Below, one piece after another: positions 24,854-57,518 of a stretch of 64,000 nucleotides of DNA; position 1 is the first letter of the stretch; the number at the start of each line of letters is the position of its first letter. The stretch lies in assembly GCA_035626995.1 (NCBI GenBank), contig DASPMP010000019.1:9080-73079 (forward strand). The letters run 5' to 3'. The notes under the pieces were generated by a model. That model searched no databases. It was not told where the DNA came from and saw only the letters and a program-made list of their open reading frames with translations. Source of the stretch: Gemmatimonadaceae bacterium. GTDB taxonomy: Bacteria > Gemmatimonadota > Gemmatimonadetes > Gemmatimonadales > Gemmatimonadaceae. The position numbers and the translations under genes were made by a program.

Positions 24854-26373
24854 ACATAACCTCGGCGCTTGGGCCTCGGCCCTCGGCTCTCGGCTCTCGG
24901 CTCTCGGCGATGCTGATCCTGGTCATTGCTGTGGCACCTCTCAGCGCGCAGCAGCGGCAGGCGGCGACGCCGGCACGTCCGCGAACGGTGGCGATCGATC
25001 GCACCAAGCAGCCCACGCCCGCGAAATCTCCCGAGCTGAAGGTGCCCGCGTGGACGAAGATGCGGCTCTCCAATGGTGCCGAACTGGTGGTATCCGCCAA
25101 GCGCGACCTGCCACTGGTATCGGTGTCGATAAACTTCCTCGGCGGCGCGAATCAGTTCGAGGACGCGGCAAAGCTTGGCGTCGCGTCGTTCACGACATCG
25201 ATGCTCAACGAGGGCACGACGTCACGCAGCGGTGACCAGCTCGCCGACGCGCAGCAGTTGCTGGGCACTCGAATCACCGCGAACGTCGGCGACGAGAGCG
25301 GCAGCATCGGCTTCACCGCGCTGAGCGACAAGCTCGAGCCCGCGCTCGATCTCCTGGCCGACATGATGCTGAACCCTGTGTTCCCGGCGCAGGGACTCGA
25401 GCGCCTTCGCGCCCAGCGCCTCGTTTCGCTGACGCAGGCAAAGGATCAGCCGGGCGCGATCGCGAACAATGTCTTCTCGAAGGTCGTGTACGGCGATGAA
25501 CACCCGTACGGGCGGGTTGTGAACGAACAGACGACGCGTGCGATCACGCGCGAGGATGTCGTCGCATTCCATCGCGAGTACTTCAAGCCCGGCCGCGCGA
25601 GCATCACCGTTGTTGGTGACGTGGATCCCGCGCGCGTGAAGGCGGCCTTCGAGAAAGCCTTCGCGAACTGGAGTGCTGGTGGTGAGAAACCCGCGTTTAC
25701 GTATCCGCCAGCACCGGCATCGAAGTCCACGACCATCTACCTCGTCGACAAGCCGAAGGCTGCGCAGTCCGTCATCAACATCGGCCTGCCAGGTCCGTCG
25801 CGCGATACGCCGGACTATTACGCGATCAGCGTAATGAACCACATCCTCGGCGGGCTGTTCCAGTCGCGACTCAATCACCTGATTCGTGAGGTGAAGGGCT
25901 ACAGCTACGGCGTGGGCTCGGGCTTCAGCTATGGACGCGGACCGGGCGCGTTCTCCGCGGGCGGTGACATCGTCTCGGAGAAGACCGACAGCGCATTGAT
26001 CGACTTCATGAACGAGCTGCGTGGCGTGCAGGGTTCTAAGCCGTTCACGGAAGATGAGATCAAGCAGGGGAAGGAGTCGCTGATCCAGAGCCTGCCGCGT
26101 CGCTTCGCGTCGGTTGACGGGGTCAATGGCGCGATTTCGGGACTGTACGTGAACGACCTGCCCGAGTCATACTATCAGGAGTATGCCGCAAAGATCGAGG
26201 CGGTGACGCCCGACGACCTGCAGCGCGTGGCGAAGAAGTACATCGACCTGAACAACCTCAATATCGTGATTGTCGGTGATCGCGCGACGATCGAGGAGTC
26301 GCTGCGGAAGACTGGCATCGCTCCCATCGTCATCCTGGATATCGAGGGCAAGCGGGTTCCGGCGACGCCGTGA
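24850..26373 (+). CDS. M16 family peptidase, non-catalytic partner subunit (no HxxEH)
   Basis: 507-aa ORF, homologous in layout to the upstream M16 gene but lacking the zinc motif. The ATG at 24850 overlaps the upstream stop (ATGA). The signal peptide MLILVIAVAPLSAQ starts at the second ATG (24910), after the repeat-encoded 20 aa. Confidence 0.85.
   Translation: MNITSALGPRPSALGSRLSAMLILVIAVAPLSAQQRQAATPARPRTVAIDRTKQPTPAKSPELKVPAWTKMRLSNGAELVVSAKRDLPLVSVSINFLGGANQFEDAAKLGVASFTTSMLNEGTTSRSGDQLADAQQLLGTRITANVGDESGSIGFTALSDKLEPALDLLADMMLNPVFPAQGLERLRAQRLVSLTQAKDQPGAIANNVFSKVVYGDEHPYGRVVNEQTTRAITREDVVAFHREYFKPGRASITVVGDVDPARVKAAFEKAFANWSAGGEKPAFTYPPAPASKSTTIYLVDKPKAAQSVINIGLPGPSRDTPDYYAISVMNHILGGLFQSRLNHLIREVKGYSYGVGSGFSYGRGPGAFSAGGDIVSEKTDSALIDFMNELRGVQGSKPFTEDEIKQGKESLIQSLPRRFASVDGVNGAISGLYVNDLPESYYQEYAAKIEAVTPDDLQRVAKKYIDLNNLNIVIVGDRATIEESLRKTGIAPIVILDIEGKRVPATP
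24861..24909. repeat. Seven tandem heptads, CTCGGCY (complement of GCCGAGR)
   Basis: ctcggcg cttgggc ctcggcc ctcggct ctcggct ctcggct ctcggcg, lying between the two M16 cistrons. Confidence 0.95.
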
Positions 26374-26374
26374 T

Positions 26375-26468
26375 GAGGGGTTGAGAGCTTGAGGGTTTCC
26401 AGGGTTTCAGTGATTCAAGGTTTCCGGAAATCCCTAAAACCCTGAATCCTTCAAACCCTGACCTTTTG
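26375..26468 (+). terminator. Imperfect long hairpin built from AGGGTTTC-type units and their complement (AAACCCT), followed by a T-run. Likely terminator of the M16 operon.
   Basis: The left arm ..cttgagggtttccagggtttcagtgattcaaggtttccgg pairs with the right arm ccctaaaaccctgaatccttcaaaccctg (about 21/28 matches by eye), then accTTTTga. It starts 2 nt after the TGA at 26371-26373. Confidence 0.6.
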
Positions 26469-26527
26469 ATGGCTGCCACTTCCCGGTCCCGATAGTAAAT
26501 TCGCCACTCCTTCAACCCAAACAGGTC

Positions 26528-27346
26528 ATGTTGCGTCGTTCCATCCTTTCCACAGTTGCGCTGGTCGTCATGTCCTCCGGTGCCGAGGCCCAGGCTCGCA
26601 CGGTGCTCGTCACCACCTCCGATTACGCATTCTCGGCGCCCGATTCCGTGGCTGCCGGTATCACGACATTCCAGCTCGTGAATCGCGGCCCCGAGCTGCA
26701 CCACATGCAGCTGATCCGCCTCGAGCAGGGGAAGACCTTCGCGGATTTCGGCGAAGCGATGAAGAATCCCGGACCACCTCCCGCGTGGGTGACGTTTCTT
26801 GGCGGCCCGAACGCCGGGATCCCCGATGGACGGGCGATGGTCACCGTCACCGCGACGCTGACGCCTGGCAACTACGTGCTGCTCTGCATGATCCCGAGTC
26901 CGGACGGCATGCCGCATTACCGAAAGAACATGGTAAAGCCCCTGAAAGTGACCGGGCGCGGCAATGTCGCGCAGGCCGGTGCTCCGACCGCCGACTACGT
27001 GATGACGTTGTATGACTACAACTTCGATATCGACAAGCCGGTCAAGGCGGGGAACCGCACCATCCTCATCAAGAACACCGCGAAGCAGTTCCACGAGGCG
27101 CTGATTGTGAAGCTGCCTCCGAACACTCCGGCGACGGCGTTTCTCGAATGGCTGCAGGGCGGCCAGAAGGGACCACCACCGGTGATTCCGATGGGTGGCA
27201 TCGTCGCGCTTACAGCTGGGCATGAAAACCTCGTGACGATGGACCTCGAGCCTGGTGAGTATGCGCTGTACTGCTTCCTCCCCGCGCCGGACGGCAAGGA
27301 GCACGTCCAGCACGGGATGTTCAAGCAGTTCACGGTCAGCCGATAG
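26528..27346 (+). CDS. Secreted protein with two tandem cupredoxin-like domains (putative copper-binding)
   Basis: Signal peptide MLRRSILSTVALVVMSSGAEAQ. Internal duplication: each half ends with C-x9-H-x4-M (LLCMIPSPDGMPHYRKNM and LYCFLPAPDGKEHVQHGM) and has an upstream His (ELHHM, QFHEA). Confidence 0.7.
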   Translation: MLRRSILSTVALVVMSSGAEAQARTVLVTTSDYAFSAPDSVAAGITTFQLVNRGPELHHMQLIRLEQGKTFADFGEAMKNPGPPPAWVTFLGGPNAGIPDGRAMVTVTATLTPGNYVLLCMIPSPDGMPHYRKNMVKPLKVTGRGNVAQAGAPTADYVMTLYDYNFDIDKPVKAGNRTILIKNTAKQFHEALIVKLPPNTPATAFLEWLQGGQKGPPPVIPMGGIVALTAGHENLVTMDLEPGEYALYCFLPAPDGKEHVQHGMFKQFTVSR

Positions 27347-27391
27347 CGCACACTACGACAGCATTGGAGTGAAAAACGCCAGCGGGGTCAG

Positions 27392-28282
27392 CTAGGCCTC
27401 CAGCTCCTCGATCCGCCGCGGCCAGTCCTGCTTGAGTAACCGGGACAGGCCGCGGTCGGCGAGCAGCTTGCCGTCTGTCTGGCAGCGAGGGCAGTAGTTC
27501 GTCTCGTTGTCCGCATAGCGGATGCGTTGCACGGCGGTGCCGCAGAGAGGACAGGGCTTTCCGTACTTCCCGTGGACGGCCATCTCCGGACGAAACGCGG
27601 TCACCTTCTCCGGGAATCCGTCGCCGACTTCGCGACGCATCCGCTCCACCCACTCGCGCAACACGTCCTGCGTCGCGGTGAACACCCGCGACATTTCCTC
27701 GTCGGTCATGCGCGAGGTCAGCTTCACCGGCGACAGTCGCGCGCGATGCAGGATCTCGTCCGAGTAGGCGTTGCCGATGCCGCTGAACAAGCGGGGGTCG
27801 GTGAGCGAACGTTTGATCGTGTGATTCTCAGACCGGAGTCGTTCGGTGAACTGCGCCTCGGTGATCGCGAGGGGCTCGAGCCCTCCACGCTCGAACTGGC
27901 GCAGTGCGTCAACGCCGCGGACGATGTGCAGCGACGCGCGCTTCTTTGTGCCCGCTTCCGTGAGCGTGAGCGTTCCTGAATCGAATACGAAGGTGGCCAG
28001 CACATTCCTATTGCGTGCAGGCCTGGCGATGCCGTGCGTCCACTTGAAGCGGCCGGCGATCATCAGGTGGATGACCACGAACAACTCGTCGTCCAGCTCG
28101 AACGCGATGCGTTTGCCCATGCGGCGCAGCGTGCGGACTGTTGCGCCACCCACCGACTGGAGCGGCGGATCCACGGTTCGAAGGAGAAATGGCGTGTGAA
28201 CGTCGAGCGCGATGAGCGTGTGTCCCACGACGCGTCGCTCCAGCGCCTCGATATAGATGGTGATGTCAGGAAGCTCAGGCAT
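27392..28282 (-). CDS. Fpg/Nei family DNA glycosylase / AP lyase
   Basis: N-terminal MPELPD (catalytic Pro2/Glu3). H2TH region. C-terminal zinc finger CPLCGTAVQRIRYADNETNYCPRCQ. Confidence 0.88.
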   Translation of the reverse strand: MPELPDITIYIEALERRVVGHTLIALDVHTPFLLRTVDPPLQSVGGATVRTLRRMGKRIAFELDDELFVVIHLMIAGRFKWTHGIARPARNRNVLATFVFDSGTLTLTEAGTKKRASLHIVRGVDALRQFERGGLEPLAITEAQFTERLRSENHTIKRSLTDPRLFSGIGNAYSDEILHRARLSPVKLTSRMTDEEMSRVFTATQDVLREWVERMRREVGDGFPEKVTAFRPEMAVHGKYGKPCPLCGTAVQRIRYADNETNYCPRCQTDGKLLADRGLSRLLKQDWPRRIEELEA

Positions 28283-28756
28283 CTACAGCCAGCGCCGGAC
28301 CTGCCGCGTGTACGTGATGTATTCGTCGCCGAATGTCGCTGTGAGAAACGCTTCCTCGCGAGTGATGACCAGCCTTGTCAGTGCAATGAGCACGAATGGC
28401 AGGACGATGATCGGCCACGGGGAATTCACGACAAGCGATGCGCCCAGGTAGCCGAGGGTCATCCCGACGTACATCGGATTGCGTGTGAACCGGTACGGGC
28501 CATCACGAACAATCGCCGTCGATGCCCGGAACGGCAGGATCGTGGTCTTCGCGCGACGGAAGACGGACACTCCCCAGAACGCCAGTGCGGTGCCGAGAAT
28601 GAGAAGGGCAATTCCGATCATGCGCACGTCGCGCGCGTCGCCGGCGATGTTGATGGCGATCCAGAAACGGTGTAGCAGATACCCAGCCACGAATCCTGTC
28701 GCGAAGAGCAGCGGCGGAGCGACGTGGATATCGGGTCGGTGTGACTGTTCATTCAC
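28283..28756 (-). CDS. Membrane methyltransferase of the ICMT/PEMT family
   Basis: 157 aa with about 4 TM segments. Signature DGPYRFTRNPMYVGMTLGYLG ... EEAFLTATFGDEYITY. Confidence 0.8.
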   Translation of the reverse strand: MNEQSHRPDIHVAPPLLFATGFVAGYLLHRFWIAINIAGDARDVRMIGIALLILGTALAFWGVSVFRRAKTTILPFRASTAIVRDGPYRFTRNPMYVGMTLGYLGASLVVNSPWPIIVLPFVLIALTRLVITREEAFLTATFGDEYITYTRQVRRWL

Positions 28757-28799
28757 CGCTGTTCTCCTGTCTTACGCCGTAAAGCTGAGGCCGAGGCTG

Positions 28800-30062
28800 C
28801 TATCGCTTCACCACCCGGATCTCCGGCAAGGGAAAGATCATCCCCACCCCGGCATCCAGCAGCGCGGCCTCTCGCTTAACGAACTCCGCCTCGAAGTGCC
28901 ACGGCAATACGAGATAGAAGTCCGGCTTCATCGCGCGCGAATCCGCCTCGCTGATGATCGGGATGTCCGTGCCCAGGGTCTTCGCGCCGAACTTGTCCGG
29001 ATTCCGGTCCGCGGCGTAGTCGATGAGCCGGTTGTCGATGCCGCACCACTGCAGGATGGTGTTTCCCTTCGTCGACGCGCCGTAGATGTGGATGCTCTTC
29101 CCTTCCGCCTTCAACCGCTTGAGCATCCCGAGCAGCTTCTCGCGATGCACGTTGATCCGGTCCTGGAAATTCTGGTACGGCTTGTCGGTGTCGAGCTCGA
29201 GGTCGAACTCCTGCTGGCGCATCAGGGCGATCTGTCCGCGCCATTCGGGATTGATGTACTTGACGCTGTCCTTCTTCGCGACGTAGCAGCGGATGCTGCC
29301 GCCGTTGATGTCATTCTCCTCGACGCGCACCACCTTCAACTTCGCCCGCGCCATGATCTGCTCCAGCACGGCGAGGCTGTAGTACTCGAGATGCTCGTGA
29401 CAGATCGTGTCGTAGGAGTTCATCTCGAGCATCTTCGGCATGTACGACATCTCGACAATCCAGAGCCCATCCTCAGCGAGATATCGCTCGATGGACTGCG
29501 CGAACGCCACGGGATCTTCGAGATCGTAGAACATCGCGATCGATGTCACGACGTCGAGCTTCGTCTTCCCGAGGACCCGATCGAGCTCCGGCGACGGAAA
29601 GAGGTCGTTCACCACCGTGATGTCGTCGTCTTTGATCTCGGTGACGATGTCCGACGGGTCGATGCCGAACTTGCGAAACCCCTTTGGGTACGCACGCAGC
29701 AGCGTGCCGTCATTTGCGCCGATGTCCAGCACGGCGGCCTTCGATTCGCCCACCATCTCCACGGCGGTGGCCGCGATGCCCGACAGGTGGTTGCGCATCG
29801 TCTGGTTCGTTCCCGACCGGTACCAGTACGCGGAATAGAGCACCGAAGGAGGCACGGACTTGCGCATCTGCAGCAGGCCGCAGGCGTTCTCGTCCTGCGT
29901 CGGATCGCAGCGCATCAGCGAGCAGTCGATCTTCCGCATCGGCGGGATCTCCTTCCCCACCTTCAGGAACGATCCCTGGAGATGCTGCTCGCCAAGGCTG
30001 ATGACGGGTTTGAGCGCGGTCGAGCCACAAACCCTGCAGGTCTTTCGATATGTCAGATGCAT
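28800..30062 (-). CDS. NDP-hexose C-methyltransferase-like enzyme (TylCIII/zinc-ribbon + class I MT + C-methyltransferase C-terminal domain)
   Basis: 420 aa. N-terminal CRVCGS..; YWYRSGTNQTMRNHL; SAM motif VLDIGANDGTLL; EHLEYYSL; C-terminal Rossmann-like IHIYGASTKGNTILQ..DRNPDKFG. Confidence 0.75.
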   Translation of the reverse strand: MHLTYRKTCRVCGSTALKPVISLGEQHLQGSFLKVGKEIPPMRKIDCSLMRCDPTQDENACGLLQMRKSVPPSVLYSAYWYRSGTNQTMRNHLSGIAATAVEMVGESKAAVLDIGANDGTLLRAYPKGFRKFGIDPSDIVTEIKDDDITVVNDLFPSPELDRVLGKTKLDVVTSIAMFYDLEDPVAFAQSIERYLAEDGLWIVEMSYMPKMLEMNSYDTICHEHLEYYSLAVLEQIMARAKLKVVRVEENDINGGSIRCYVAKKDSVKYINPEWRGQIALMRQQEFDLELDTDKPYQNFQDRINVHREKLLGMLKRLKAEGKSIHIYGASTKGNTILQWCGIDNRLIDYAADRNPDKFGAKTLGTDIPIISEADSRAMKPDFYLVLPWHFEAEFVKREAALLDAGVGMIFPLPEIRVVKR

Positions 30063-30110
30063 GGCGCCGTCTAATATCGCGCACTAGCCAGTGGGCGGCT
30101 ATCACGTAGA

Positions 30111-33850: not shown

Positions 33851-33853
33851 GAC

Positions 33854-38332: not shown

Positions 38333-38529
38333 AGCTCTCGGCCATCGGCCCTCGGCCCTAAAGCCCTTGGCCGTAAGGCCTTTGGCCGTAAGCCGCTGGC
38401 AGTAAGCTCTTGGCCGTAAGCTCTTGGCCGTAAGCTCTTGGCCGTAAGCTCTTGGCCGTAAGCTCTTGGCAGTAAGCTTTTGGACCTTAGCTCTTGGCGG
38501 TCAGCTCTTGGCTGTTAGCGTTTGCCGCG
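38333..38529. repeat. Tandem array of about 14 copies of a 14-nt unit (AAGCTCTTGGCCGT; complement GCCAAGAGCTTACG-like)
   Basis: Four perfect copies at 38404-38459, flanked by progressively degenerate copies. The HD-GYP stop codon (38487-38489) lies inside the array. Confidence 0.95.
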
Positions 38530-39716: not shown

Positions 39717-39788
39717 AGCTTGGCGGCTTGGCGGCTTGACGGCTTGACAAGCCGAGAAGCTGAAAAGCCGACACGCTGACAAAGGCCG
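39717..39788. repeat. Inverted array of 8-nt units: (RGCTTGRC)x4 followed by (AAGCYGAN)x5
   Basis: agcttggc ggcttggc ggcttgac ggcttgac | aagccgag aagctgaa aagccgac acgctgac aaaggccg. The array occupies most of the 96-nt spacer between the 758-aa gene and the HD-GYP gene. Confidence 0.9.
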
Positions 39789-42937: not shown

Positions 42938-44068
42938 ATGTCGTACCGCGCTTCAGTCAAAACAGGCAGAGTCGCCAGCGTAGTCGCCGGCATTCTTTTC
43001 TTATCGCTTCCCGGTTGCACGCAGGCGACGCGGTCGACGACCGCCACGCCGGGCATGGCGGCCCCGTCCTTTGCGGCGGCCGGCGGAATTCTCAGCAACA
43101 TCTACAACACCGCCCGCAGCGTCTTCGAGAACGAGACAGTCTCGCTGGCACTCGATCGCATCGACCAGAGAGAGCTGCCGCTGGATCGGACGTACCGGCG
43201 TCGCGGGACCGGTTCGGGAGTCACGGTCTACGTGTTCGACGGTGGCATCATGGAGTCGCACCCCGAGCTCGCGGGTCGCGTCCGGAAAGGCTTCGACGCG
43301 TTCGATGACGACGCACGCATCTGTAACGCGCACGGCACAGCGGTCGCCGGCGCGATCGCCGGAAAGTCCCTCGGCGTGGCTCCGGAAGCGAAGATCGTCG
43401 ACGTGAAGATGGTCGAGTGTGGCAAGCTCCGCGGCACCATCAAGGCGATCGTCGACGGTGCCAACTGGGTCATCGAAGACCATCGCCGGCATGGCGGACC
43501 GTCGGTAGCGAACTGGTCGTTCATCGCCGACACCGCCTCGCGCATTCCTGCGCTCGACAGCGCCGTCGCGGCGCTCCGCGCTGAAGGCATTGCGGTAATC
43601 GTATCCGCCGGCAACGTCGAGGTGAACGCATGCCGTGTGTCACCCGGTAACGCCGATGGCGCGATTGTCGTCGGCGCGTCCACCATCGTCCGCGATCGCG
43701 AGACGAACAAGGTCACAGACCGCCGGGCCTACAACACGGCATACGGCCAGTGCATCGACTTCTACGCTCCGGGCGATTCCGTACTCCTGCCCAGCTTCGA
43801 CGCCGCGCGCACGCCAAGCGTCCAGCTGTGGAACGGAACGTCGATGTCGACCGGCTACGTCAGTGGCGCGGTGGCGCTGTTCCTGGAGGCCAATCCCAAG
43901 GCCTCTCCGGATGACGCGCTGACGTACCTGCGCGGGATGGCAACCATGAACGTGGTGCAGAACACCTATGCCCCAATTTCGTGGCTGCTGTACGTAGGTC
44001 CGGCCCGGTCGACGGGCGAGGACCTGCAGAGCGTCGAGGAGATCCGCGCCCGCATCGCTCGGCGCTGA
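42938..44068 (+). CDS. Subtilisin-like serine peptidase (S8 family), probable lipoprotein
   Basis: Catalytic triad in D-H-S order: GVTVYVFDGGI, NAHGTAVAGAIAG, NGTSMSTGYVSGAVAL. N-terminal ILFLSLPGC. Confidence 0.88.
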   Translation: MSYRASVKTGRVASVVAGILFLSLPGCTQATRSTTATPGMAAPSFAAAGGILSNIYNTARSVFENETVSLALDRIDQRELPLDRTYRRRGTGSGVTVYVFDGGIMESHPELAGRVRKGFDAFDDDARICNAHGTAVAGAIAGKSLGVAPEAKIVDVKMVECGKLRGTIKAIVDGANWVIEDHRRHGGPSVANWSFIADTASRIPALDSAVAALRAEGIAVIVSAGNVEVNACRVSPGNADGAIVVGASTIVRDRETNKVTDRRAYNTAYGQCIDFYAPGDSVLLPSFDAARTPSVQLWNGTSMSTGYVSGAVALFLEANPKASPDDALTYLRGMATMNVVQNTYAPISWLLYVGPARSTGEDLQSVEEIRARIARR

Positions 44069-44101
44069 TCGGCCTCGGCCCTCGGCTCTCGGCTCTCGGC
44101 A
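44058..44101. repeat. CTCGGCY heptad repeats spanning the S8 peptidase stop codon
   Basis: ctcggcg ctgatcggc ctcggcc ctcggct ctcggct ctcggca. The TGA at 44066-44068 lies within the array. Confidence 0.9.
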
Positions 44102-44133: not shown

Positions 44134-44167
44134 GTCGCACCCTGGCCAATTCTGGCCAGGGTGCGAC
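44134..44167 (+). terminator. Perfect 15-bp stem, 4-nt loop hairpin (candidate terminator of the S8 gene; no U-tract)
   Basis: GTCGCACCCTGGCCA-attc-TGGCCAGGGTGCGAC. Confidence 0.45.
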
Positions 44168-47874: not shown

Positions 47875-48062
47875 GAAAGCGCTCAATTGGGTCTCGGATT
47901 CGGCTGAAACGCCGGATGAGGCTGATGACTGCGCTGCAGGTTGGCAAAGACCAATGCACAATTCCGAGAACAATGGGCATCAATGGAGTGGCATTGTTCA
48001 AGGAACAAATCCGGCTCTGATCCGCTGTTTCAGCCTAATCCGAGACCCCTTTGAGCGCTTTC
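47875..48062. repeat. 188-bp element bounded by 36-bp imperfect terminal inverted repeats (candidate MITE or structured RNA)
   Basis: The left arm GAAAGCGCTCAATTGGGTCTCGGATTCGGCTGAAAC (47875-47910) matches the reverse complement of 48027-48062 (GAAAGCGCTCAAAGGGGTCTCGGATTAGGCTGAAAC) at 33/36 positions. Nested stems: GCCGGAT/ATCCGGC (47911-17 / 48009-15) and GAACAATG/CATTGTTC (47968-75 / 47992-99). The interior is visibly less GC-rich than its surroundings. Confidence 0.7.
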
Positions 48063-48130
48063 ATTGAGATAGCACCAGTCGACGACGCCGAAGTAGCGGA
48101 CGACGCGCGTCGAGTCGACGAGCGGCTCCA

Positions 48131-50103: not shown

Positions 50104-50131
50104 TTTTCACAGGTCTCGCGGGAAGGTCATC

Positions 50132-51253
50132 ATGAAGCTTCGTGCGCCGCTGCTCGTTGCCGCCCTCCTGGGCTGCAGCGATCCCAATCCGCCGCTGCCG
50201 TCTGCGCTTCGTGTCACCCCGTTCGTCAACGGCCTCTCCGCGCCCATTTTCCTCGCGTCGCCGCCAGGGGACGCACGGGTTTTCATCGCCGAGCAGGGTG
50301 GCCGCATCCGGGTCGTTGTCGACGGCGCCCTTGTGGAAGAGCCATTCCTCGACATCAGCTCGAAGATCAGCGCGGGGGGTGAGCGCGGACTCCTCGGCTT
50401 CGCGTTCCACCCCGACTTTGCCACGAACGGATTTTTCTACGTCAACTACACGGACCTCAACGGCGATACGAAGATCGAGCGATATCACGCCCAGCCATCC
50501 GCGTTGACTGCGGACGCGGCGTCGGCATCACATGTCCTCGGAATTCCTCAGCCGTTCTCGAATCACAATGGCGGGATGCTCCTCTTCGGTCCTGATGGCA
50601 ACCTGTGGATTGGCACTGGCGATGGTGGCAGCGGTGGCGACCCGCAGGGAAACGGACAGCGGACGACCACGCTGCTCGGAAAGATGCTCCGTATCAGCGT
50701 CGGCGCGGCCGACGGATATGCGATTCCCCTCGATAATCCCTTCGCGACGAGTACCGCGGTGCGCACGGAGATCTGGGGACTGGGACTCCGGAATCCCTGG
50801 CGTTACTCCATCGATCGCGGCACGGGCTTGCTCTACGTGGCCGACGTCGGACAGAACGCGTGGGAGGAAATTCACGTCGTCCGCACGAATGCGTCTCCCG
50901 TGAATTTCGGATGGGTCATCATGGAAGGCACCCGGTGCTACAACGCCGAGAGCTGTGACATGAACGGCCTCGATATTCCCGTCCTCGAATATCCACACGC
51001 CGAGGGTTGCTCCATCACCGGTGGGTTCGTCTATCGCGGGAGCTTCATTCCCGGAATCCGAGGACACTATTTCTACAGCGATTTCTGCACTGGGTTTCTG
51101 CGCAGCTTCCGCTACGCGGACGGCCGGGCGACGCAGCAGCGGGAATGGGACGTCGGTGACCTCGGCAACGTCATGTCCTTCGGCGAGGATTCCGCCGGAG
51201 AGCTGTACATCCTGTCGTCGAACGGCACGGTATACAGGATCGTTCCTCCGTAA
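50132..51253 (+). CDS. PQQ-dependent sugar dehydrogenase (soluble glucose/sorbosone dehydrogenase, GSDH family) lipoprotein
   Basis: Lipobox LLGC. GERGLLGFAFHPDF..FFYVNYT, SNHNGGMLLFGPDGNLWIGTGDGG, GLRNPWRYS. Confidence 0.85.
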   Translation: MKLRAPLLVAALLGCSDPNPPLPSALRVTPFVNGLSAPIFLASPPGDARVFIAEQGGRIRVVVDGALVEEPFLDISSKISAGGERGLLGFAFHPDFATNGFFYVNYTDLNGDTKIERYHAQPSALTADAASASHVLGIPQPFSNHNGGMLLFGPDGNLWIGTGDGGSGGDPQGNGQRTTTLLGKMLRISVGAADGYAIPLDNPFATSTAVRTEIWGLGLRNPWRYSIDRGTGLLYVADVGQNAWEEIHVVRTNASPVNFGWVIMEGTRCYNAESCDMNGLDIPVLEYPHAEGCSITGGFVYRGSFIPGIRGHYFYSDFCTGFLRSFRYADGRATQQREWDVGDLGNVMSFGEDSAGELYILSSNGTVYRIVPP

Positions 51254-51304
51254 TTCGACGACGCGACTCGATCGCGTGCGCGTCGCAAGCCCGATGCGCT
51301 TCGC

Positions 51305-52855
51305 ATGAACGAACGCGCTGGCGTCGCGGTGTCGATGTCCCGCCGGGAGCTCGCATATCTCGTAATGGCACTTGCCGGGGGCACGATCGCGCTCCTGTCC
51401 GTCAGCGGTGTGCTGTGGACGCGTCCGTTGTGGATGGATGAACTGGCGACGGCCTGGGTAACCGCGCATGCGTCCCCGGTCGATGTTGTGCGCCACATCG
51501 CGCGAGGGGGCGAATGGTCGCCGCCGGCATATCATCTTCTCGTCTGGATCGTACGCCAATTGAGTGGTGGCGGACTCGATCCCATCGTACTGCGGTCCGT
51601 GTCAGCGTTGCTCGCAACCGTCGCCATCGCGCTGGTGTATGCGACGCTTCGCCGACGCGTCGAGATCGCGACTGCTGCGGCCGCAACGCTCGTGATGGTG
51701 GGACATTCGCTGTTCATCGAGCAGGCTTTCGAGGGCCGCATGTACGCGGGTTGGCTCGCGGCGGCCGCCTTCTACGCATGGTCCCTGGGGCAACCGCAGC
51801 ACACGCGTGGAGCACGCGTACGACAGGGGCTCGCGGCCGTGTTGCTCGTCGCCGTACACTGGTTCGGCATCCTCTCACTTGGCCTGATGGCGGTCGGAGC
51901 GTTGTTGGCGCGGACTGGTGCGCTGCGGGACCGCATTCGGCTCGTCGTTCCCAGCGCTGCCGGAATCATCGCGCTGATCGCCCTGTCGCCGCTCGTGCTG
52001 GCACAACGGCGCGCTGCGTCAGGCATCCTTTGGGTGCCCGAGATCACCCTCGACCAGACGACCGTCCTGCTGCGCTTCTTCCTCCCGGCAGCAGCGATGG
52101 TAATCGTGGCGATTGCGGCCGTCGCATCTGTTCCATGGCGCGAATCGGCGTCGGCTGAAGCGAACCCTGATCCGCTCAACCCCGGTATCGCCGCGCTTAC
52201 CTCGCTCGTTCTGATGCCGCTGGTGTTGATTCTGGTGTCGCTGTTGCTGCAGCCGTCGATGCTGCCGCGTTATGCAGTCGTTACGGTGTTGGGATGGCCG
52301 GCGATTTTCGCGCTCGCCATTCATCTGCTGGATGTGCGTTTCCGGGTCGCGCTCGTGACGGTTTTTTCGTTCGTCGCTGCCCTGTCTTTCGCCGATGCAA
52401 CGGATGTGCGTCAGGTCTTCGCCCGCCGTGCTGCCGCGTTGCAGTCCGCGGTCCGTGAAGCGGGCGGCACACGTTTGCCCGTTGTGCTCCAGGCAATTCA
52501 CCCGATGTACTACGCCGCGCTTCCGACACCGGGCGCGCCACCACCAGCTCGGTACATCTCCGTCCCCGATTCCGCGATAGCCGGCATGTACGATGGACCC
52601 TACGCCCCCTACGTCCGCCGACACCTGCATCTGGAGCGCGAGATTGCCGCGGAGCATGAACGGCTGTTCGGCTTTCCTCCCTCGGTTGCGCTTGCGACCC
52701 TGGACACCACGCCCGCCTTCGCGCTCGTCGCCGACGCAGGGAGTCTTCCGCCGCAGTACGGAAGCGTGCAGCAATGGGCCAGGCGTCTGCTGCCGAATCA
52801 TTCCGTGCGACGCGTGAGCCCCCTGGTGTCCATTCTCGAGCGTCAGGCGCGTTGA
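51305..52855 (+). CDS. GT-C fold membrane glycosyltransferase (PMT/ArnT/GT39-GT83-like), paralog 1
   Basis: 516 aa and polytopic. First-loop acidic motif RPLWMDELATAW. C-terminal soluble domain of about 150 aa. Confidence 0.7.
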   Translation: MNERAGVAVSMSRRELAYLVMALAGGTIALLSVSGVLWTRPLWMDELATAWVTAHASPVDVVRHIARGGEWSPPAYHLLVWIVRQLSGGGLDPIVLRSVSALLATVAIALVYATLRRRVEIATAAAATLVMVGHSLFIEQAFEGRMYAGWLAAAAFYAWSLGQPQHTRGARVRQGLAAVLLVAVHWFGILSLGLMAVGALLARTGALRDRIRLVVPSAAGIIALIALSPLVLAQRRAASGILWVPEITLDQTTVLLRFFLPAAAMVIVAIAAVASVPWRESASAEANPDPLNPGIAALTSLVLMPLVLILVSLLLQPSMLPRYAVVTVLGWPAIFALAIHLLDVRFRVALVTVFSFVAALSFADATDVRQVFARRAAALQSAVREAGGTRLPVVLQAIHPMYYAALPTPGAPPPARYISVPDSAIAGMYDGPYAPYVRRHLHLEREIAAEHERLFGFPPSVALATLDTTPAFALVADAGSLPPQYGSVQQWARRLLPNHSVRRVSPLVSILERQAR

Positions 52856-54435
52856 GCACGCAACTGTCGTCCCGGCGTGACACGCTGATCGTTGCTGGTG
52901 TCATGCTCGCGCTGCTGGGCTGCGCGGTGAGCGTGTGGAACATCCTGCTCACTCGGCCGCTCTGGCTCGATGAAGTCCACACGCTGATCGTGGCAGAGCG
53001 CCCCACCGCGGCGCTGGTCCTGTCCGACCTTACCGGTGGCGTCGATACTGCGCCAGGCCTGATGCACCTCCTCATGTGGTCAATCGGCAGGGTGGTATCG
53101 CTCTCGCCCGTCGTGCTGCATCTCGTCCCCCTCGTCGCCGTGTGGCTGGGGCATGTGTTCCTGTTCGCGGCGTTGCGCCGGCGTTTTGGCGTCATCGCTT
53201 CCAGCGCGGGAACGCTCGCGGTGCTGACGACCCTCCTGGTCGTCCAGATGACGTATGAGGCACGGTTCTACGGGCTGTGGCTCATGTTCGCGGCAGGATT
53301 CGCATGCGCAATCGGTCGGGAGCCATCGCGCGGACGCGATCTGCTGGTCGGTGTATTCGCGATCCTGCTCTGCACCATTCACTGGTTTGGCGTCATCTCC
53401 CTGGGGATCATGTGCGTCGCAGTGATGACGGTGCACTGGCGGACATGGCGTGTCGGCCTCCGCGCAATCGTCCCTGCCGCCGCAGGCATCATTGCCCTGC
53501 TTTTCACCATTCCGGTGCTGCTCGGTCAACGCGCCGCCGTGACGGCGCCGACCTGGATCCCCGCCCCGAATTCAGGACAGATATGGGAGATGACGCGAAC
53601 GTTTTACGTCGCGCTCGTTCCCGTGCTCGCCGTTTTGATTCTGCTCGCTCAGCGACTCCGGCCGAGAGCTGACAGCCGAGACCTGACAGCCGAGGGCCGA
53701 GAGCTGACAGCCGAGAGCCGGGAGCCGAGGCCGGACGGCCGAGAGCCGAGGGCGCTATGGAACCGCAGCATCGTGGCACTCGCGTCGCTCGCCTTGATGC
53801 CCGTCGCGATGTACATGGTGTCCGTCGTGCTGCAGCCCAGCCTCCTCGACCGGTATTCAACGGTTGCATTGCTGGCATGGGCGCCCCTCGTCGCCTGCGC
53901 GACTCAAGCGCTTCCCGCGCGCGCCGGTGTGCTGTTCTCGCTCCTTTTGCTCAGCCTCGGCGCACTCAACTACCGTCGCGCTGCCGGCGGCATGCAGAGT
54001 TACCAGCGGGTGTTCGACGCCGATTTGCGCTCGTGGAACGCTGCCGTCTCCCGCACCGACCTTCCGATCGTTTTCCAGGCGCGGCATGTCCAGCTTCCCA
54101 TCGCTGCCGTAAAACCGTCAGGGCGCGAACGGATGGCATTTCTGGTGCTGCCGGACTCCACTCTCAACGCCGCCTTCAACGTGCGTGGCCCGCTGCGGCT
54201 GATGAACGCATTCTTCCGGTTCGAGCGCGAGGCCGCGCTGCTACACCATCGCGTCTATCGCTTTCCACCGGTGCGAACCCAGGCCGAGCTGGATACCACG
54301 TCCCAATTCCTGCTGCTGGCTTCAGACGCGAGCCTGCCCCCGGGCTACAAGAACGTCGAGCGATTCGCGCAGGTCTTTTTCCCGACACACACGGTGACGC
54401 GACTCGAAAGGAATCTGGCGCTGCTGAGACGGTGA
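52852..54435 (+). CDS. GT-C fold membrane glycosyltransferase, paralog 2 (carries an in-frame repeat insertion)
   Basis: The TTG at 52852 overlaps the upstream stop. RPLWLDEVHTLI. Colinear with paralog 1 along its whole length, including the C-terminal ..ASLPPGY.. region. Confidence 0.7.
   Translation: MSTQLSSRRDTLIVAGVMLALLGCAVSVWNILLTRPLWLDEVHTLIVAERPTAALVLSDLTGGVDTAPGLMHLLMWSIGRVVSLSPVVLHLVPLVAVWLGHVFLFAALRRRFGVIASSAGTLAVLTTLLVVQMTYEARFYGLWLMFAAGFACAIGREPSRGRDLLVGVFAILLCTIHWFGVISLGIMCVAVMTVHWRTWRVGLRAIVPAAAGIIALLFTIPVLLGQRAAVTAPTWIPAPNSGQIWEMTRTFYVALVPVLAVLILLAQRLRPRADSRDLTAEGRELTAESREPRPDGREPRALWNRSIVALASLALMPVAMYMVSVVLQPSLLDRYSTVALLAWAPLVACATQALPARAGVLFSLLLLSLGALNYRRAAGGMQSYQRVFDADLRSWNAAVSRTDLPIVFQARHVQLPIAAVKPSGRERMAFLVLPDSTLNAAFNVRGPLRLMNAFFRFEREAALLHHRVYRFPPVRTQAELDTTSQFLLLASDASLPPGYKNVERFAQVFFPTHTVTRLERNLALLRR
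53661..53751. repeat. GCCGAGAGCTGACA / GCCGAGR repeat array inside the coding sequence of GT-C paralog 2
   Basis: gccgagagctgaca gccgagacctgaca gccgagg gccgagagctgaca gccgaga gccggga gccgagg ccggacg gccgaga gccgagg. Translated as ..RADSRDLTAEGRELTAESREPRPDGREPRA.. Confidence 0.9.
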
Positions 54436-54452
54436 GGCGCTAGGCGCCGCTA

Positions 54453-54527
54453 GTCGGCTTGTCGGATGGTAGGCTTCTCGATGTTTTGAGAAGCTGAGAA
54501 GCCGTCAAGCAGATAAGCCATCAAGCC
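54453..54527. terminator. Imperfect inverted repeat of GGCTTNNC / GAGAAGCY units between convergent genes (candidate bidirectional terminator)
   Basis: gtcggcttgtcggatggtaggcttctc - gatgtttt - gagaagctgagaagccgtcaagcagataagccatcaagcc, lying between the stop at 54433-35 (+) and the stop at 54537-39 (-). Confidence 0.5.
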
Positions 54528-54536
54528 CGTTGCCAG

Positions 54537-55466
54537 CTACTTCAAATTCAGCGACTCCTCGATGACATAGATCGGCCGTCGCTTCGCCTCGCTGAACGTC
54601 CGCCCGATGTATTCCCCGAGGATGCCGATGCCGAGGCTGTTCACGCCGAGCCCGGCGAGCACCAGCACGATCAGCGTCGTGAGACCTGGCGGTGGTGAGC
54701 CGCGCAACCAAAGCGTCACGTACACGATCGCGAGCAGGAACGACACGCCGAGCACCATGAACCCGAAAAGGGTGAACAGGCGCAGTGGCCGTAGGGAAAA
54801 GCTCGTGATCGCGTTGAACGTGAACAGCAGGATGTCCGCGAGCGGCGCGTTGCTGCGTCCGGTCGTACGGGGACGCCGCTCGTACTCCACGCCGATCTGC
54901 TTGAACCCGACCCAGGCGATCATCCCGCGCATGTAGCGGTTCACTTCACCCATTCGCAGCACGGCGTCGCGGACCCGTGAGCTGATGAGCCGGAAATCGC
55001 CGGTGTCCTTCGGGATCGGGACGTCAGAGAGCCACGCGATCATCCGATACGCGAGCCACGCGCCCGCGTTGCGCCACTTCGGGTCTCCGGCGCGCACGGT
55101 GCGCACGCCGTAGACCACGTCATACCCCTGCTTCCATTTCTCGATGAACCGCGGAATGACTTCAGGGGGATCCTGCAGATCCGAATACAGCACAACCATC
55201 GCGTCACCATTCGCGTGCTCATAGCCGGCGGTGATCGAGCCTTCGACCGAGAAATTCCGGCTGAACCGGATGTATCTCCATCGCTTGTCTCGCTGACAGA
55301 GCTCGGCGGCGAGCCGGCCGGTGTCGTCGGTGCTCGCATTGTCGACGATGATGAACTCGAAGTCGTCCGGCTGGGACGCCGCCAGCGCCGTCACCTCGGC
55401 CTCGACGCGCGCCATGTTCCCCGCCTCGTTCCGGGCAGGGATGATGATCGTAATGAGCTTTTTCAC
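54537..55466 (-). CDS. GT2 polyprenyl-phosphate glycosyltransferase (GtrB/ArnC/Dpm1-like) with two C-terminal TM helices
   Basis: IIIPARNEAGN.., FIIVDNASTDDT, VLYSDLQDPPEVIPRF.., C-terminal FMVLGVSFLLAIVYV and LIVLVLAGLGVNSLGIGILGEYIGR. Confidence 0.85.
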   Translation of the reverse strand: MKKLITIIIPARNEAGNMARVEAEVTALAASQPDDFEFIIVDNASTDDTGRLAAELCQRDKRWRYIRFSRNFSVEGSITAGYEHANGDAMVVLYSDLQDPPEVIPRFIEKWKQGYDVVYGVRTVRAGDPKWRNAGAWLAYRMIAWLSDVPIPKDTGDFRLISSRVRDAVLRMGEVNRYMRGMIAWVGFKQIGVEYERRPRTTGRSNAPLADILLFTFNAITSFSLRPLRLFTLFGFMVLGVSFLLAIVYVTLWLRGSPPPGLTTLIVLVLAGLGVNSLGIGILGEYIGRTFSEAKRRPIYVIEESLNLK

Positions 55467-55634
55467 GTCTCGGTCAGCGGTGGGCGCATTGCCTCAGATA
55501 ACGATTAGCCGATGCAGAACGAAACGCTTGCGTCCCTGTTGTCATGCGGGCGGGGGAGCCCGCCTGCCCTCTGGGACGCCCGGCCCTCTGAATCGTCCTA
55601 TGGGGGCTGGATTCACTGTAGGCCCAAGCACTTA

Positions 55635-55720
55635 GCGCCGAGGCCGAGGCGGAGCGCCGAGGCCGAAACCGTTAGCTGTCAGCCGAGAGCCGAGAGCTGA
55701 AGGCCGAGAGCCGAGAACCG
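55635..55720. repeat. GCCGAGR heptad array directly upstream of the rfbF start codon
   Basis: gcgccgag gccgagg cggagc gccgagg ccgaaac cgttagctgtca gccgaga gccgaga gctgaag gccgaga gccgaga accgataaaATG. Confidence 0.9.
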
Positions 55721-55725
55721 ATAAA

Positions 55726-56502
55726 ATGAAAGTCGTCATTCTGTGCGGTGGCCAGGGCACACGACTGCGCGAGGAAACCGAGTTCCGGCCGAAGCCACTC
55801 GTCGACGTCGGCGGACGCCCTGTGCTCTGGCACATCATGAAGTTCTACGCACACTTCGGGTTCAAGGAATTCATCCTCTGCCTCGGCTACCGGGGCGCGA
55901 TGATCAAGGAGTACTTCCTGAACTACGAGGCGATGAACAGTGATTTCACCATCAGCCTCGGCGAGCACCACGCGATCAAGTACCACGAGCCGCATGGCGA
56001 GCAGGATTATCGCGTCACCCTCGTGGACACCGGGCAGGATACCGCAACCGGAGGCCGCGTCGCCCGCACGCGCGGCTACGTCAAGGACGATCTCGTGATG
56101 GTGACATACGGCGACGGTCTCGTGGACGTCGACATCGCCAAGGCCATGGCCTTCCACAAGGAGCATGGCAAGCTCGCGACCGTGACCACCGTGCGTCCCA
56201 CGTCGCGCTTCGGGATTCTCGAGCTCGACGATCGCGCTGGCGTCGAGCGCTTCTCGGAGAAACCCCAGGTGGATGGCTGGGCCAGCGCCGGATATTTCAT
56301 CTTCGACCGCAAGATCTACGACTATCTTGGCGGCGACGACTGCGTTCTCGAGCGCGAGCCACTGGAGCAGCTGGCGAAGGAGAAGCAGCTGATGGCCTAT
56401 CGCCACGACGGATTTTTCTTTGCGATGGACACCTATCGTGAATACCTGCAGCTCAACGAGCTGTGGAACACCGGCACCGCCCCTTGGAAGGTCTGGAAGT
56501 GA
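55726..56502 (+). CDS. rfbF: Glucose-1-phosphate cytidylyltransferase (CDP-glucose synthase)
   Basis: [65 protein letters not shown] is nearly diagnostic of RfbF/DdhA. Confidence 0.92.
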
Positions 56503-57518
56503 AGCCGAGAGCCGAGGGCCGAGAGCCGAGGCCGAGGCTCAAAGCCGAGGCCAATTTCTGGACCGACCGCCCAACCCTCGTCACAGGCGGCACGGGCCTC
56601 GTCGGCAGCTGGCTTGTCAAGCGACTGGTGGAGCACGGCGCATCGGTCGTGTGTCTCGTGCGCGACTGGGTGCCGCAGAGTGAGCTCGTGCGCACGGGAA
56701 CGCTCGAGAAGGTCAACGTTGTTCGTGGCGACGTGCGCAGCCAGCGGGTACTGGAGCGCGCGATCGGCGAGTACGAAGTGGACACGGTCATACATCTCGC
56801 CGCGCAGACCATCGTGGGGATCGCGAACAGAAATCCGGTGTCGACCTTCGAGTCGAACATCCAGGGAACCTGGGCACTCCTCGAGGCGTGCCGGCGGAGT
56901 CCGCTGGTGAAGCAGGTGGTGATCGCATCGTCGGACAAAGCGTACGGCGACCAGGAGAACCTTCCGTACCGTGAAGACGCGCCGCTGCAGGGACGCAATC
57001 CCTACGACGTCAGCAAGAGCTGCTCTGATCTCATCGCGCAGTCGTATGCGTCGGTCTACGGGCTGCCCGTTGCAATCACGCGCTGTGGCAATTTCTACGG
57101 TGGCGGCGACCTGAACTGGAATCGCATTGTACCGGGGACCATCCGCTCGGTGCTGCGCAACCAGCGCCCGGTCATCCGCTCTGACGGCACCTACATCCGC
57201 GATTATTTCTACGTCGAGGACGGTGCGGCGGCCTACATGCTGCTCGCGGAGAAGATGTCGTCGAACCCCACGGTTCGCGGACAGGCGTACAATTTCTCGA
57301 ATGAGATCCAGATACCGGTGCGGGATCTTGCGAACCGGATCCTTCAGCGGATGGACTCGAAGCTCGAGCTCGACATCCGCAACGACGCCGTGAACGAGAT
57401 CAGGCACCAGTACCTGTCGGCGGACAAGGCGAAGCAGGAGCTCGCGTGGACGCCCCTGTTCAATCTCGACCAGGGACTCGACCGCACCATCGCGTGGTAC
57501 CGTGATTTCTTTGGCTGA
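56499..57518 (+). CDS. rfbG: CDP-glucose 4,6-dehydratase
   Basis: [25 protein letters not shown] matches the RfbG N-terminus. The SDR catalytic residues are SSDKAYG..YDVSKSC. The only in-frame start before the Rossmann motif is the GTG at 56499 (or 56463), so the heptad repeat is translated ([17 protein letters not shown]). Confidence 0.88.
56504..56552. repeat. GCCGAGR heptad array at the rfbF/rfbG junction (inside the rfbG 5' coding region)
   Basis: gccgaga gccgagg gccgaga gccgagg ccgaggctcaaa gccgagg cc. Confidence 0.9.

Follow-up and report, generated by a model that had tools for sequence, protein, structure and literature searches.

Heptad tandem arrays at gene boundaries and in frame within genes of a Gemmatimonadaceae chromosomal region

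Repeat arrays and their genomic context

The stretch of DNA analysed here, a 64-kb segment of the Gemmatimonadaceae contig DASPMP010000019.1 (assembly GCA_035626995.1) that we refer to as the window, carries a dispersed set of tandem arrays built on seven-nucleotide units (heptads), most of them lying in spacers between genes and some of them translated in frame. According to open reading frame (ORF) calls, GC3 scoring, the gene calls of the collection, and Pfam, the region is ordinary chromosomal DNA. Its genes encode GlgE, a Vgb-lyase-like protein, and two M16 peptidases; Fpg, a PEMT-like methyltransferase, a Tricorn-like protein, and an ECF sigma/anti-sigma pair; a VIT/VWA protein, an HD-domain protein, an S8 peptidase, transketolase, and PGDH; and a polysaccharide cluster with two paralogous GT-C/PMT_2-like membrane proteins, GT2, rfbF, an rfbG-like dehydratase, and DegT. 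Among the Pfam-scanned ORFs, which cover about 20-59 kb of the window, there is no transposase, integrase, RAYT, or cas gene, in agreement with a first-pass annotation of this DNA that had noted no transposase, integrase, or cas gene nearby.

Tandem Repeats Finder (TRF), with arrays counted at periods of 7, 8, 14, or 16 and at least 3.5 copies, returned nine merged arrays of period 7, 8, or 14 in the window, while 100 dinucleotide-preserving shuffles gave two arrays in total, that is, 0.02 per shuffled window. A metagenome scan with rfbF yielded one close relative (L124; relatives are denoted by contig number where they must be told apart), and the remaining 79 rfbF-containing loci, from other soil taxa, served as a control for density: they held three such arrays in 360 kb, compared with eight in 43 kb in four syntenic relatives and nine in the 64 kb of the window. 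All window arrays with at least 3.5 copies have periods of 7, 8, or 14 or are alternative descriptions of the same array, with period 7 called at 22031, 22156, 24860, 38337, 44069, 53661, 55637, and 56503. The units follow one another head-to-tail, without unique spacers, and share a core. For instance, the 14-mers GCCAAGA-GCTTACG and GCCGAGA-GCTGACA each consist of two diverged heptads, and the 8-mers AAGCCGAG, AAGCTGAA, and AAGCCGAC are heptads of the same core with one base added. GCCGAGR-type loci number six in 32 kb, and the unit, read directly, contains a stop codon in none of its six frames. Most window arrays are imperfect, with 70-90% matches, and perfect runs mostly comprise two or three units.

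The first-pass annotation had proposed a dispersed family of 7-, 8-, and 14-nt units with one core, present in both orientations and diverging by point substitutions. TRF and the comparison of units support this description and add block duplication to the substitutions. Eight of the nine loci that it listed are TRF arrays with the letters described, but the segment at 28771-28800, listed as a degenerate copy, is no array: it contains at most two GCCGAG-like units and gives no TRF row, and the GCCGAG hexamer is frequent by composition (76 occurrences on the plus strand of the window). At two of those eight loci (39717-39788 and 54453-54527) repeats are present, but they are inverted 8-mer pairs folding into hairpins and not simple arrays. 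The annotation had missed a palindrome at 22015-22255, an inverted 8-mer array at about 26376-26470, and the arrays of the contig beyond the window, among them two 8-mer arrays and another inverted pair, AGGGAAC/GTTCCCT. This pair, AGGGAAC x10 and TTCCCTG x6 between convergent genes (L256:14063-14195), some 2 kb or 8.5 kb to the left of the window on the same contig, is of the same family as 22015-22255. AGGGAAC loci thus number two on the contig, and at least two heptad families, GCCGAGR-type and AGGGAAC-type, recur in this genome.

Spacers make up about 5% of the window, and eight of the ten window loci sit in them. It had been claimed that the repeats lie exactly on gene junctions, with every copy abutting a stop or start codon. 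The concentration at gene boundaries stands, but the array at 53661-53751 lies in the middle of a 510-aa ORF (52903-54435), and a relative carries an array within its transketolase gene. Relative to transcription there is no orientation bias, both orientations occurring in roughly equal numbers in the window and in other Gemmatimonadales loci. The six GCCGAGR arrays of the window are of single orientation and not self-complementary, and no conserved flanks or target duplications were found around them. A search of the whole window against Rfam at the gathering threshold, one of the checks that had been proposed, matched no family, and a scan for consensus promoters and terminators over 38-57 kb found nothing at the arrays, with totals at shuffle level. 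Purifying selection acting on a compact genome would produce such a bias toward junctions, and an intrinsic targeting rule is not supported.

The source of the window is a 103.6-kb ENA contig of a k-mer (k141) metagenome assembly, which raises the question of whether the arrays are artefacts of short-read assembly. Contig L002 of the separate Logan assembly is 100% identical to the window over 5143 bp, four arrays included, although it may use the same reads; because of this identity, it gives no information on copy-number polymorphism. Beyond this second assembly, independent metagenomes of other studies hold orthologous arrays, and the same heptad arrays occur in the isolates Thiohalocapsa sp. 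ML1 and Vibrio sp. CK2-1, in a complete Sanguibacter chromosome, and in long-read metagenome-assembled genomes (MAGs) with contigs of up to several megabases. The reading frames kept by the coding arrays also speak against misassembly, and an artefact, which the first-pass annotation had asked to have checked, is excluded.

Arrays within coding sequences

The array at 24860-24909 consists of seven units of CCTCGGC or TCTCGGC (TRF and sequence), corresponding to GCCGAGR on the minus strand. On one side it is preceded by the ATGA at which the stop and start of the two M16 genes overlap (24850-24853), and on the other it is followed by the hydrophobic core of a signal peptide. The array is translated as MNITSALGPRPSALGSRLSA and is included in the 507-aa form of an identical protein that NCBI names as that of a Gemmatimonadaceae MAG. 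The peptide SALGSRLSA is found in many M16 orthologues of about 70-75% identity and is decayed in others (LRALGSGL, LSAIGFRLAA). This conservation of an array-coded peptide bears out the proposal that 24850-24912 is read through in frame. At the same junction, L252 has a perfect (TCTCGGC)4, L254 has (GCTTTCG)5, and L253 lacks an array. Variants are arranged in blocks in the window, where TCTCGGC x3 follows CCTCGGC x2, and in L254 the same C-to-T variant is present in three of the five units whatever the codon position, which points to homogenisation at the level of DNA.

A second array, at 56502-56553 on the plus strand, has five to six GCCGAGR units (TRF 56503-56552) immediately behind the GTGA in which the rfbF stop and the rfbG start overlap, and is translated as the 17-residue N-terminus of the CDP-glucose-4,6-dehydratase-like (rfbG) protein. 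Two relatives, L118 and L119, have empty sites here, consisting of GTGA, 8 nt, and TTCTGG. Measured against these, the start of rfbG is longer by 45 nt in the window and by 63 nt in L124, whose nucleotide identity is 87%; the frame is kept in each case, with no other possible start ahead of the conserved FW. The in-frame read-through proposed for 56499-56552 is therefore also confirmed by the empty sites of relatives.

The array that lies in the middle of an ORF (53659-53753, plus strand) is made of 12.9 heptads of GCCGAGA and GCTGACA (TRF 53661-53750) with a higher-order period of 35 nt. It is read in frame as RPRADSRDLTAEGRELTAESREPRPDGREPRA, a loop between hydrophobic segments of a GT-C/PMT_2-like membrane glycosyltransferase, and the alignment places it where orthologues and the paralogue have a shorter, hypervariable loop. 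The loop array is common to the window, L122, and L123, with differing variant units, and there is none in L118. At the other end of a protein, the HD protein takes its last ~10 residues and its stop codon from the distal units of the 14-mer array at 38333-38529, and its tail (NANSQELTAKS, then stop) departs from that of L252 just after the conserved LEGRVA..E.P.

Another coding array was observed in a relative, in which (CCAAGCY)x16 lies in frame in transketolase (L119:3530-3643) and adds a 31-residue insert, SAELQAPSSKPQAQSPQPQAQSPEPRAQSPKPQ, close to where the pyrimidine-binding domain meets the C-terminal domain of a protein that is otherwise about 85% identical to that of the window. In every genome examined (window, L124, L122, L123, L252, L254, and the transketolase of L119), every coding array is in frame, and the only hosts of such arrays are tolerant segments, namely an N-terminus, a C-terminal tail, or a loop or linker.

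Arrays and hairpins in intergenic spacers

The spacer from the stop of the HD-domain gene to the start of the VIT/VWA gene is occupied by the array at 38333-38529 (minus strand), in which CTCGGCC x3 (TRF 38337-38359, 3.3 copies) is followed by 10.8 copies of the 14-mer AAGCTCTTGGCCGT (38361-38512). On the minus strand this 14-mer reads GCCAAGAGCTTACG, two diverged heptads; its five central copies are perfect, and the flanking ones are decayed. The junction has no array in L252, and that of the window is specific to it. In the divergent GT2/rfbF spacer, the array at 55635-55722 (plus strand) has 12.7 GCCGAGR units (TRF 55637-55721), with GCTGAAG and GCTGTCA variants, and stops 4 nt short of the rfbF ATG. 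The same distance is found in L122, which shares a homologous 3′ part of the array, whereas the site is empty in L118 and the spacer itself is missing in L119. The region upstream of rfbF also contains a block, GAATCGTCCTAnnnGGGCTGGAYTCA (window 55590-55616, L118 ~10370-10400, L122 ~4620-4650), that is kept with or without the heptad array and might serve the polysaccharide operon as a promoter or regulatory site.

From the stop codon of the S8 peptidase gene onward, upstream of transketolase, lies an array of five CTCGGCY units on the minus strand (44058-44101; TRF 44069-44100, 4.7 copies). The same junction in L119 has (CCAAGCY) x20, that is, another motif in the other orientation. A perfect hairpin with a 14-bp stem, GTCGCACCCTGGCC-AATTCT-GGCCAGGGTGCGAC (44134-44167), is found 33 nt downstream of (CTCGGCY)5 and is probably what in fact terminates the S8 gene.

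Other loci are inverted pairs. Between the stop of the Vgb-lyase-like gene (22243, minus strand) and the start of GlgE lies a 230-bp nested palindrome (22015-22255), the arms of which, GGGAAAC x5 (22031-22064) and CCCTGTT/AGGGAAC x12.6 (22156-22244), are inverted around an inner palindrome; its RNA fold reaches -137.8 kcal/mol (z = -8.2). L252 has a small GGGAATY hairpin at this junction instead. Immediately beyond the second M16 stop codon, at about 26376-26470, units of the GGTTGAGA type followed by their complement form a hairpin (TRF period 16 at 26429-26461; folds of -36.1 and -40.7 kcal/mol, z of -1.65 and -3.08), and L118 has a like pair, GTTTGAGA/CCCTCAAA, at another junction. This inverted array stands just upstream of a 272-aa ORF (26528-27346) with weak cupredoxin-like similarity, located between the second M16 gene and fpg and absent in L252 and L253. 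Downstream of its own M16 pair, L252 carries tandem REP-like hairpins of the GTCCGnnGCGAAGCnnCGGCA type (L252:5990-6090) in the place taken by the 8-mer inverted array in the window; one junction holds different palindromic repeat kinds in different lineages.

The pair at 39717-39788, GCTTGGCG x3.6 and then AAGCCGAG/AAGCTGAA/AAGCCGAC (TRF 39718-39784, 8- and 16-mers), forms a hairpin between the stop of a 758-aa gene (39792) and the ATG of the HD gene (39695, minus strand), with folds of -39.3 and -31.1 kcal/mol, and the true HD start lies downstream of the array. Between the convergent GT-C and GT2 genes, the pair at 54453-54530, GTCGGCTT... and then GAGAAGCT/GAGAAGCC/GTCAAGCA (TRF 54487-54527, 8- and 16-mers), folds at -44.4 and -38.1 kcal/mol (z of -3.0 and -2.6). 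At this junction the window, L118, and L122 have inverted pairs made from different 8-mers, and L123 has three copies of CGACAAGC. There are no U-tracts at the inverted-pair hairpins, which are plausibly terminators or RNA-stabilising structures. Strand asymmetry of hairpin stability, which would be a sign of selection at the RNA level, was looked for and not found: the non-transcribed strand folds equally well or better.

The 296-nt spacer between PGDH and an FAD-oxidase gene holds a 188-bp element (47875-48062) with 46-nt terminal inverted repeats (TIRs; 87% complementary), GAAAGCGCTCAATTGGGTCTCGGATTCGGCTGAAACG... The corresponding spacer is 80 nt long in L118 and does not exist in L119, where the two genes overlap. 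The element looks like an insertion of the miniature inverted-repeat transposable element (MITE) type, unrelated to the heptad arrays.

Turnover among relatives and occurrence in other genomes

The comparisons of orthologous junctions indicate that arrays persist for long, grow or shrink in place, decay, and are sometimes replaced. In L119, for example, CCAAGCY/AGCCCCA heptads are found at four loci in 20 kb. The same contig contains, downstream of GT2, a repeat block (L119:11508-12225) made of a 21-mer x4.6, a 42-mer x10.2 (428 bp, 95% matches), and heptads x14-16. Gene calling treats this block as a 277-aa ORF, for which Pfam gives no hit, and the neighbouring ParE-toxin gene pair is an insertion by comparison with the window.

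When 185,579 species genomes were scanned for (GCCGAGR)3GCCGAG, at least 115 stretches were returned. Among the matches listed, several per genome were present in at least nine Gemmatimonadales MAGs, in Thiohalocapsa sp. ML1 (at least 11 loci), in a gammaproteobacterial MAG, and in several Methylomirabilota, and single matches were present in Streptomyces, Vibrio, a haloarchaeon, and others; these were repeat matches only, with no orthologue of the window locus among those listed. The intergenic enrichment that the first-pass annotation had made a test of its proposal holds across other genomes, with 58 of the 74 listed GCCGAGR arrays located off contig edges being intergenic. We discarded the notion of GCCGAGR as a motif of a special kind that has spread over phyla (Vibrio, Thiohalocapsa, NC10, Streptomyces, the haloarchaeon), as permuted heptads are equally common or commoner: 10 viral contigs bear GCCGAGR arrays, compared with 27 and 11 for two permuted heptads of the same composition. 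The recurrence across phyla thus reflects a general tendency of heptamers to form arrays and nothing special about the motif.

Several individual arrays deserve description. Vibrio sp. CK2-1 has a perfect (CTCGGCT)17 in an AT-rich spacer (L009:5912-6030), and a Versatilivoraceae MAG has a perfect (GAGAGCC)21 that ends at an ATG (L069:3265-3410); the same heptad can exceed 100 bp in unrelated and even low-GC genomes. In the Gemmatimonadales MAG MFD01721, one array passes from (GGGCCGA)x4 to (GGGCTGA)x~20 (L014:4553-4730), which looks like a variant unit taking over the array. In MAG DASUXC and in Thiohalocapsa, arrays form palindromic hairpins.

The Gemmatimonadaceae MAG SMAG_U3634 (contigs L012, L046, L056, L076, L080, L101, and L105) has TIR elements of ~180 and ~420-450 bp. 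Their ends are CAACTGACGGCCGCCGGC followed by (CTCGGCY)4 and, on the other side, (GCCGAGR)4 followed by GCCGGCGGCCGTCAGTTG, with inner palindromes CCGGAAGCG...CGCTTCCGG; at least seven alignable TIR copies are present in 62 kb, there is no obvious target duplication, and the long form looks like a dimer. The heptad arrays of SMAG_U3634 are thus parts of a MITE/REPIN-like element. As the end motif and the inner palindrome are absent from the window and its syntenic relatives, we rejected the possibility that the window arrays are copies of this element.

Origin and maintenance of the arrays

We consider it fairly probable that the arrays are lineage-specific heptamer simple sequence repeats (SSRs), with 7-nt units and 8- and 14-nt derivatives, on which slippage, unequal exchange, or conversion acts at each site and selection then works as a filter. 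A seed of at least two adjacent units would expand or contract in place through slipped-strand mispairing or unequal exchange, and possibly through gene conversion between arrays, and this would yield blocks of identical variants and higher-order periods of 14, 21, and 35 nt. Such a process would act on DNA and be blind to strand. Purifying selection would then purge the arrays that break genes, so that survivors would be found in the very short spacers of a compact genome or, when coding, would have a total length that is a multiple of three and lie in a tolerant segment; the absence of stop codons from all frames of GCCGAGR would make in-frame survival easier. Some survivors might gain roles, inverted pairs as long hairpins at 3′ ends or between convergent genes, and coding arrays as signal-peptide or disordered segments. 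We infer slippage or conversion as the generating process from the block structure, the higher-order periods, the codon-blind spread of variants, the length changes between orthologous arrays, and the lack of shared flanks and of an orientation rule, while the extreme intergenic bias, together with coding copies that are all in frame and in tolerant segments, argues for the selective filter.

Nevertheless, several observations weigh against this explanation. Slippage alone does not account for the recurrence of one motif, which is found at no fewer than six loci within 32 kb and also in nine or more Gemmatimonadales MAGs, and some arrays are old and well kept, as illustrated by the perfect (TCTCGGC)4 of L252 and the SALGSRLSA peptide conserved at ~70-75% identity. 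Since the frame is kept only by steps of three units, slippage should homogenise a coding array poorly, and the imperfection of most window arrays implies lower slippage rates. Moreover, several junctions bear arrays in every relative, with unrelated units, and some junctions could need some array, whatever its motif. The two assemblies are identical, and polymorphism was thus not directly observed. As regards gene conversion, GCTGACA-type variants are present at several window loci, but GCTGAAR is also common to the orthologous L122 array. The gaps would be filled by dispersal of seeds via palindromic elements like those of SMAG_U3634, by ectopic gene conversion, or by a binding protein.

If the arrays were arms or remnants of small non-autonomous palindromic mobile elements, of MITE or REP/REPIN type, insertion would explain the dispersal, and decay would leave solo arrays. 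Four window loci are in fact inverted pairs, the nested palindrome at 22015-22255 has a second member on the contig, the Thiohalocapsa arrays are head-to-head hairpins, the reverse and forward arrays of MAG DASUXC flank a GAGAGCTCTC-centred palindrome, and the inverted pairs of SMAG_U3634, 150 or ~415 bp apart, belong to a longer conserved TIR, CAACTGACGGCCGCCGGC-(heptads)...(heptads)-GCCGGCGGCCGTCAGTTG, in at least seven copies. However, its end motif is missing from the window and the syntenic relatives, the six GCCGAGR arrays have one orientation each and share neither flanks nor target duplications, orthologous arrays stay at their sites across large divergence while their length changes, and the scanned ORFs include no transposase or RAYT gene, so that we hold such an origin to be unlikely. 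Another possibility is a function as cis-elements, in which arrays would be multivalent sites for a putative heptad-recognising DNA- or RNA-binding protein controlling the transcription, termination, or translation of the flanked genes. We rate this as improbable too. Both orientations are about equally represented, and positions are mixed (5′ UTR, 3′ UTR, intercistronic, and inside coding sequences); close relatives (L118, L119, and L253) have empty sites with intact genes, the same junction can bear an unrelated motif (CTCGGCY or CCAAGCY), the hairpins are no more stable on the transcribed strand, and neither Rfam matches nor consensus terminators coincide with the arrays. In favour of such a function are a distance of 0-12 nt from stops or starts, the presence of an array at some junctions in all relatives, the four arrays within the surface-polysaccharide gene cluster, the distance of 4 nt from the rfbF ATG in the window and L122, and the post-transcriptional role that MacGregor (2015, PMC4679880) proposed for heptamer repeats adjacent to start codons.

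Given a unit length that is no multiple of three and arrays at the 5′ ends and in the promoter region of LPS/O-antigen-type genes, the arrays could also be contingency loci, in which 7-nt steps would switch genes (rfbG, GT-C, M16) or tune the rfbF promoter and make the surface polysaccharide phase-variable; heptamer repeats are known to modulate promoters in Haemophilus and Vibrio. We find this very unlikely, because all coding arrays are in frame in all the genomes examined, the two assemblies do not differ, the tracts are interrupted, so that perfect runs are mostly of two or three units, and transketolase, a housekeeping gene whose switching off would be harmful, is hit as well. A different and rather doubtful proposal, put forward here as speculation, is that Gemmatimonadaceae have an active, motif-aware repeat maintenance, through ectopic gene conversion or templated synthesis at gene ends, which would homogenise a genome-specific heptad across junctions and write it in frame into proteins. 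If this were true, the N-termini, loops, and tails affected would belong to ordinary proteins and even to essential ones (the M16 signal peptide, RfbG, the GT-C glycosyltransferase, and transketolase), heptad arrays would routinely supply a free-living bacterial lineage with new disordered protein segments and 3′ hairpins, and the system would be a chromosomal counterpart of what has been reported for Borg elements.

Comparison with known repeat systems

Several known systems combine some of the features of the window arrays. REP, BIME, and REPIN sequences are extragenic, lie after stops or between convergent genes, form inverted hairpin pairs, occur in many copies of a 20-40-bp imperfect palindrome, and are linked to RAYT. 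The inverted-pair loci of the window and the TIR elements of SMAG_U3634 resemble them, but the six GCCGAGR arrays contain no such palindrome or inverted doublets, and inverted pairs are restricted to the 8-mer loci and 22015-22255. Similarly, the TIRs, target-site duplications, and alignable copies that define MITEs are lacking in the window arrays, and SMAG_U3634 shows them without clear duplications. Mycobacterial MIRU are intercistronic, read through, and variable in copy number, with units of 40-100 bp. The likeness to MIRU drawn by the first-pass annotation is sound as far as intercistronic read-through is concerned, since the ATGA and GTGA overlaps are kept and the arrays at 24850-24912 and 56499-56553 are in frame, but it fails for the units, which measure 7-14 nt, and in the window the frame is kept only through total array length. 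The interrupted tracts and alleles that are all in frame differ from phase-variable loci, and head-to-tail units of 7-14 nt, with neither spacers nor cas genes, differ from CRISPR.

For coding copies, the closest parallels are Rickettsia palindromic elements, mobile palindromes of 100-150 bp that are tolerated in frame in proteins, and the tandem repeats of Borgs, the coding ones of which have unit lengths divisible by three. As in the window, both place in-frame repeats in genes, housekeeping genes included, and add surface or disordered segments. In the window, by contrast with Borgs, a 7-nt unit gives the peptide a period of seven residues (21 nt). Borg repeats are found between as well as within genes and are fast evolving (PMC9879509).

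The closest relatives of the arrays as a whole are heptamer repeats. Cyanobacterial short tandemly repeated repetitive (STRR) sequences are genome-specific heptanucleotide families, tandem, dispersed, and mostly non-coding. The window likewise has several genome-specific tandem heptanucleotide families that are mostly non-coding, with other motifs and in another phylum, STRR being AT-richer and not known for coding copies in frame. Rehm et al. (2015, PMC4692102), who mention the Calothrix heptanucleotides (STRR), described GGGAATC in Xanthomonas and GGGGAYT in Nostoc, with about a hundred dispersed loci of one motif per genome, about 90% of them intergenic, close to ORF ends, and on both strands. 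They found heptamers that are kept at junctions and vary in length between close species, with some inverted pairs; the article relays the hypothesis that polymerase slippage favours heptamers and, citing a 2007 survey, notes that heptamer SSRs are over-represented in prokaryotes generally. The window arrays agree with these SSRs in the features of the class: 7-nt head-to-tail units, a dispersed motif, intergenic location near ORF ends and on both strands, length and sequence variation between relatives, and inverted pairs. The Xanthomonas GGGAATC is nearly identical to GGGAAAC/AGGGAAC of the window and GGGAATY of L252, which could form G-quadruplexes. The corresponding pattern, (G3N4)n with at least four G-runs, is found only in GGGAAAC/AGGGAAC at 22031-22244; in the GCCGAGR arrays, the mixture of A and G at position 7 makes GGG runs non-consecutive, four G-runs in a row are usually lacking, and GCCGAGR is not a G-quadruplex motif. 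The window differs from the Xanthomonas and Nostoc repeats in its 8- and 14-nt derivatives, its in-frame arrays, and its phylum, Gemmatimonadota. MacGregor (PMC4679880) reported tandem sets of TAACTGA at more than 100 intergenic sites in Beggiatoaceae, cyanobacteria, and Bacteroidetes, often a few nucleotides upstream of start codons and patchy across unrelated lineages, a Chromatiaceae member included. Both are tandem intergenic heptamers with a patchy phylogenetic distribution, but TAACTGA contains stop codons and prefers a position and orientation upstream of starts, whereas the window unit is stop-free, follows no orientation rule, and is also found at 3′ ends and in genes.

The first-pass annotation had taken the repeat to be undescribed. 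We found no literature on the GCCGAGR motif in Gemmatimonadota and no heptamer repeats specific to this phylum, and a 2025 survey of short tandem repeats mentions neither heptamers nor Gemmatimonadota; the motif family thus appears to be undescribed for the phylum, but the kind of element is known from the systems discussed above. At the practical level, such arrays affect start-codon calls and create low-complexity insertions in the annotated proteins of MAGs. The many syntenic relatives allow unusually clear before-and-after comparisons, including empty and filled sites, motif replacement, strict frame preservation, and a conserved array-coded signal-peptide segment, so that the questions of whether heptad arrays are mutational by-products filtered by selection or are kept for a function become approachable in one lineage. 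The arrays are of the same class as the cyanobacterial STRR, the Xanthomonas GGGAATC, the Nostoc GGGGAYT, and the Beggiatoa TAACTGA repeats, and the Gemmatimonadota, an abundant soil phylum, can now be added to the several bacterial lineages in which heptamer tandem repeats are over-represented.

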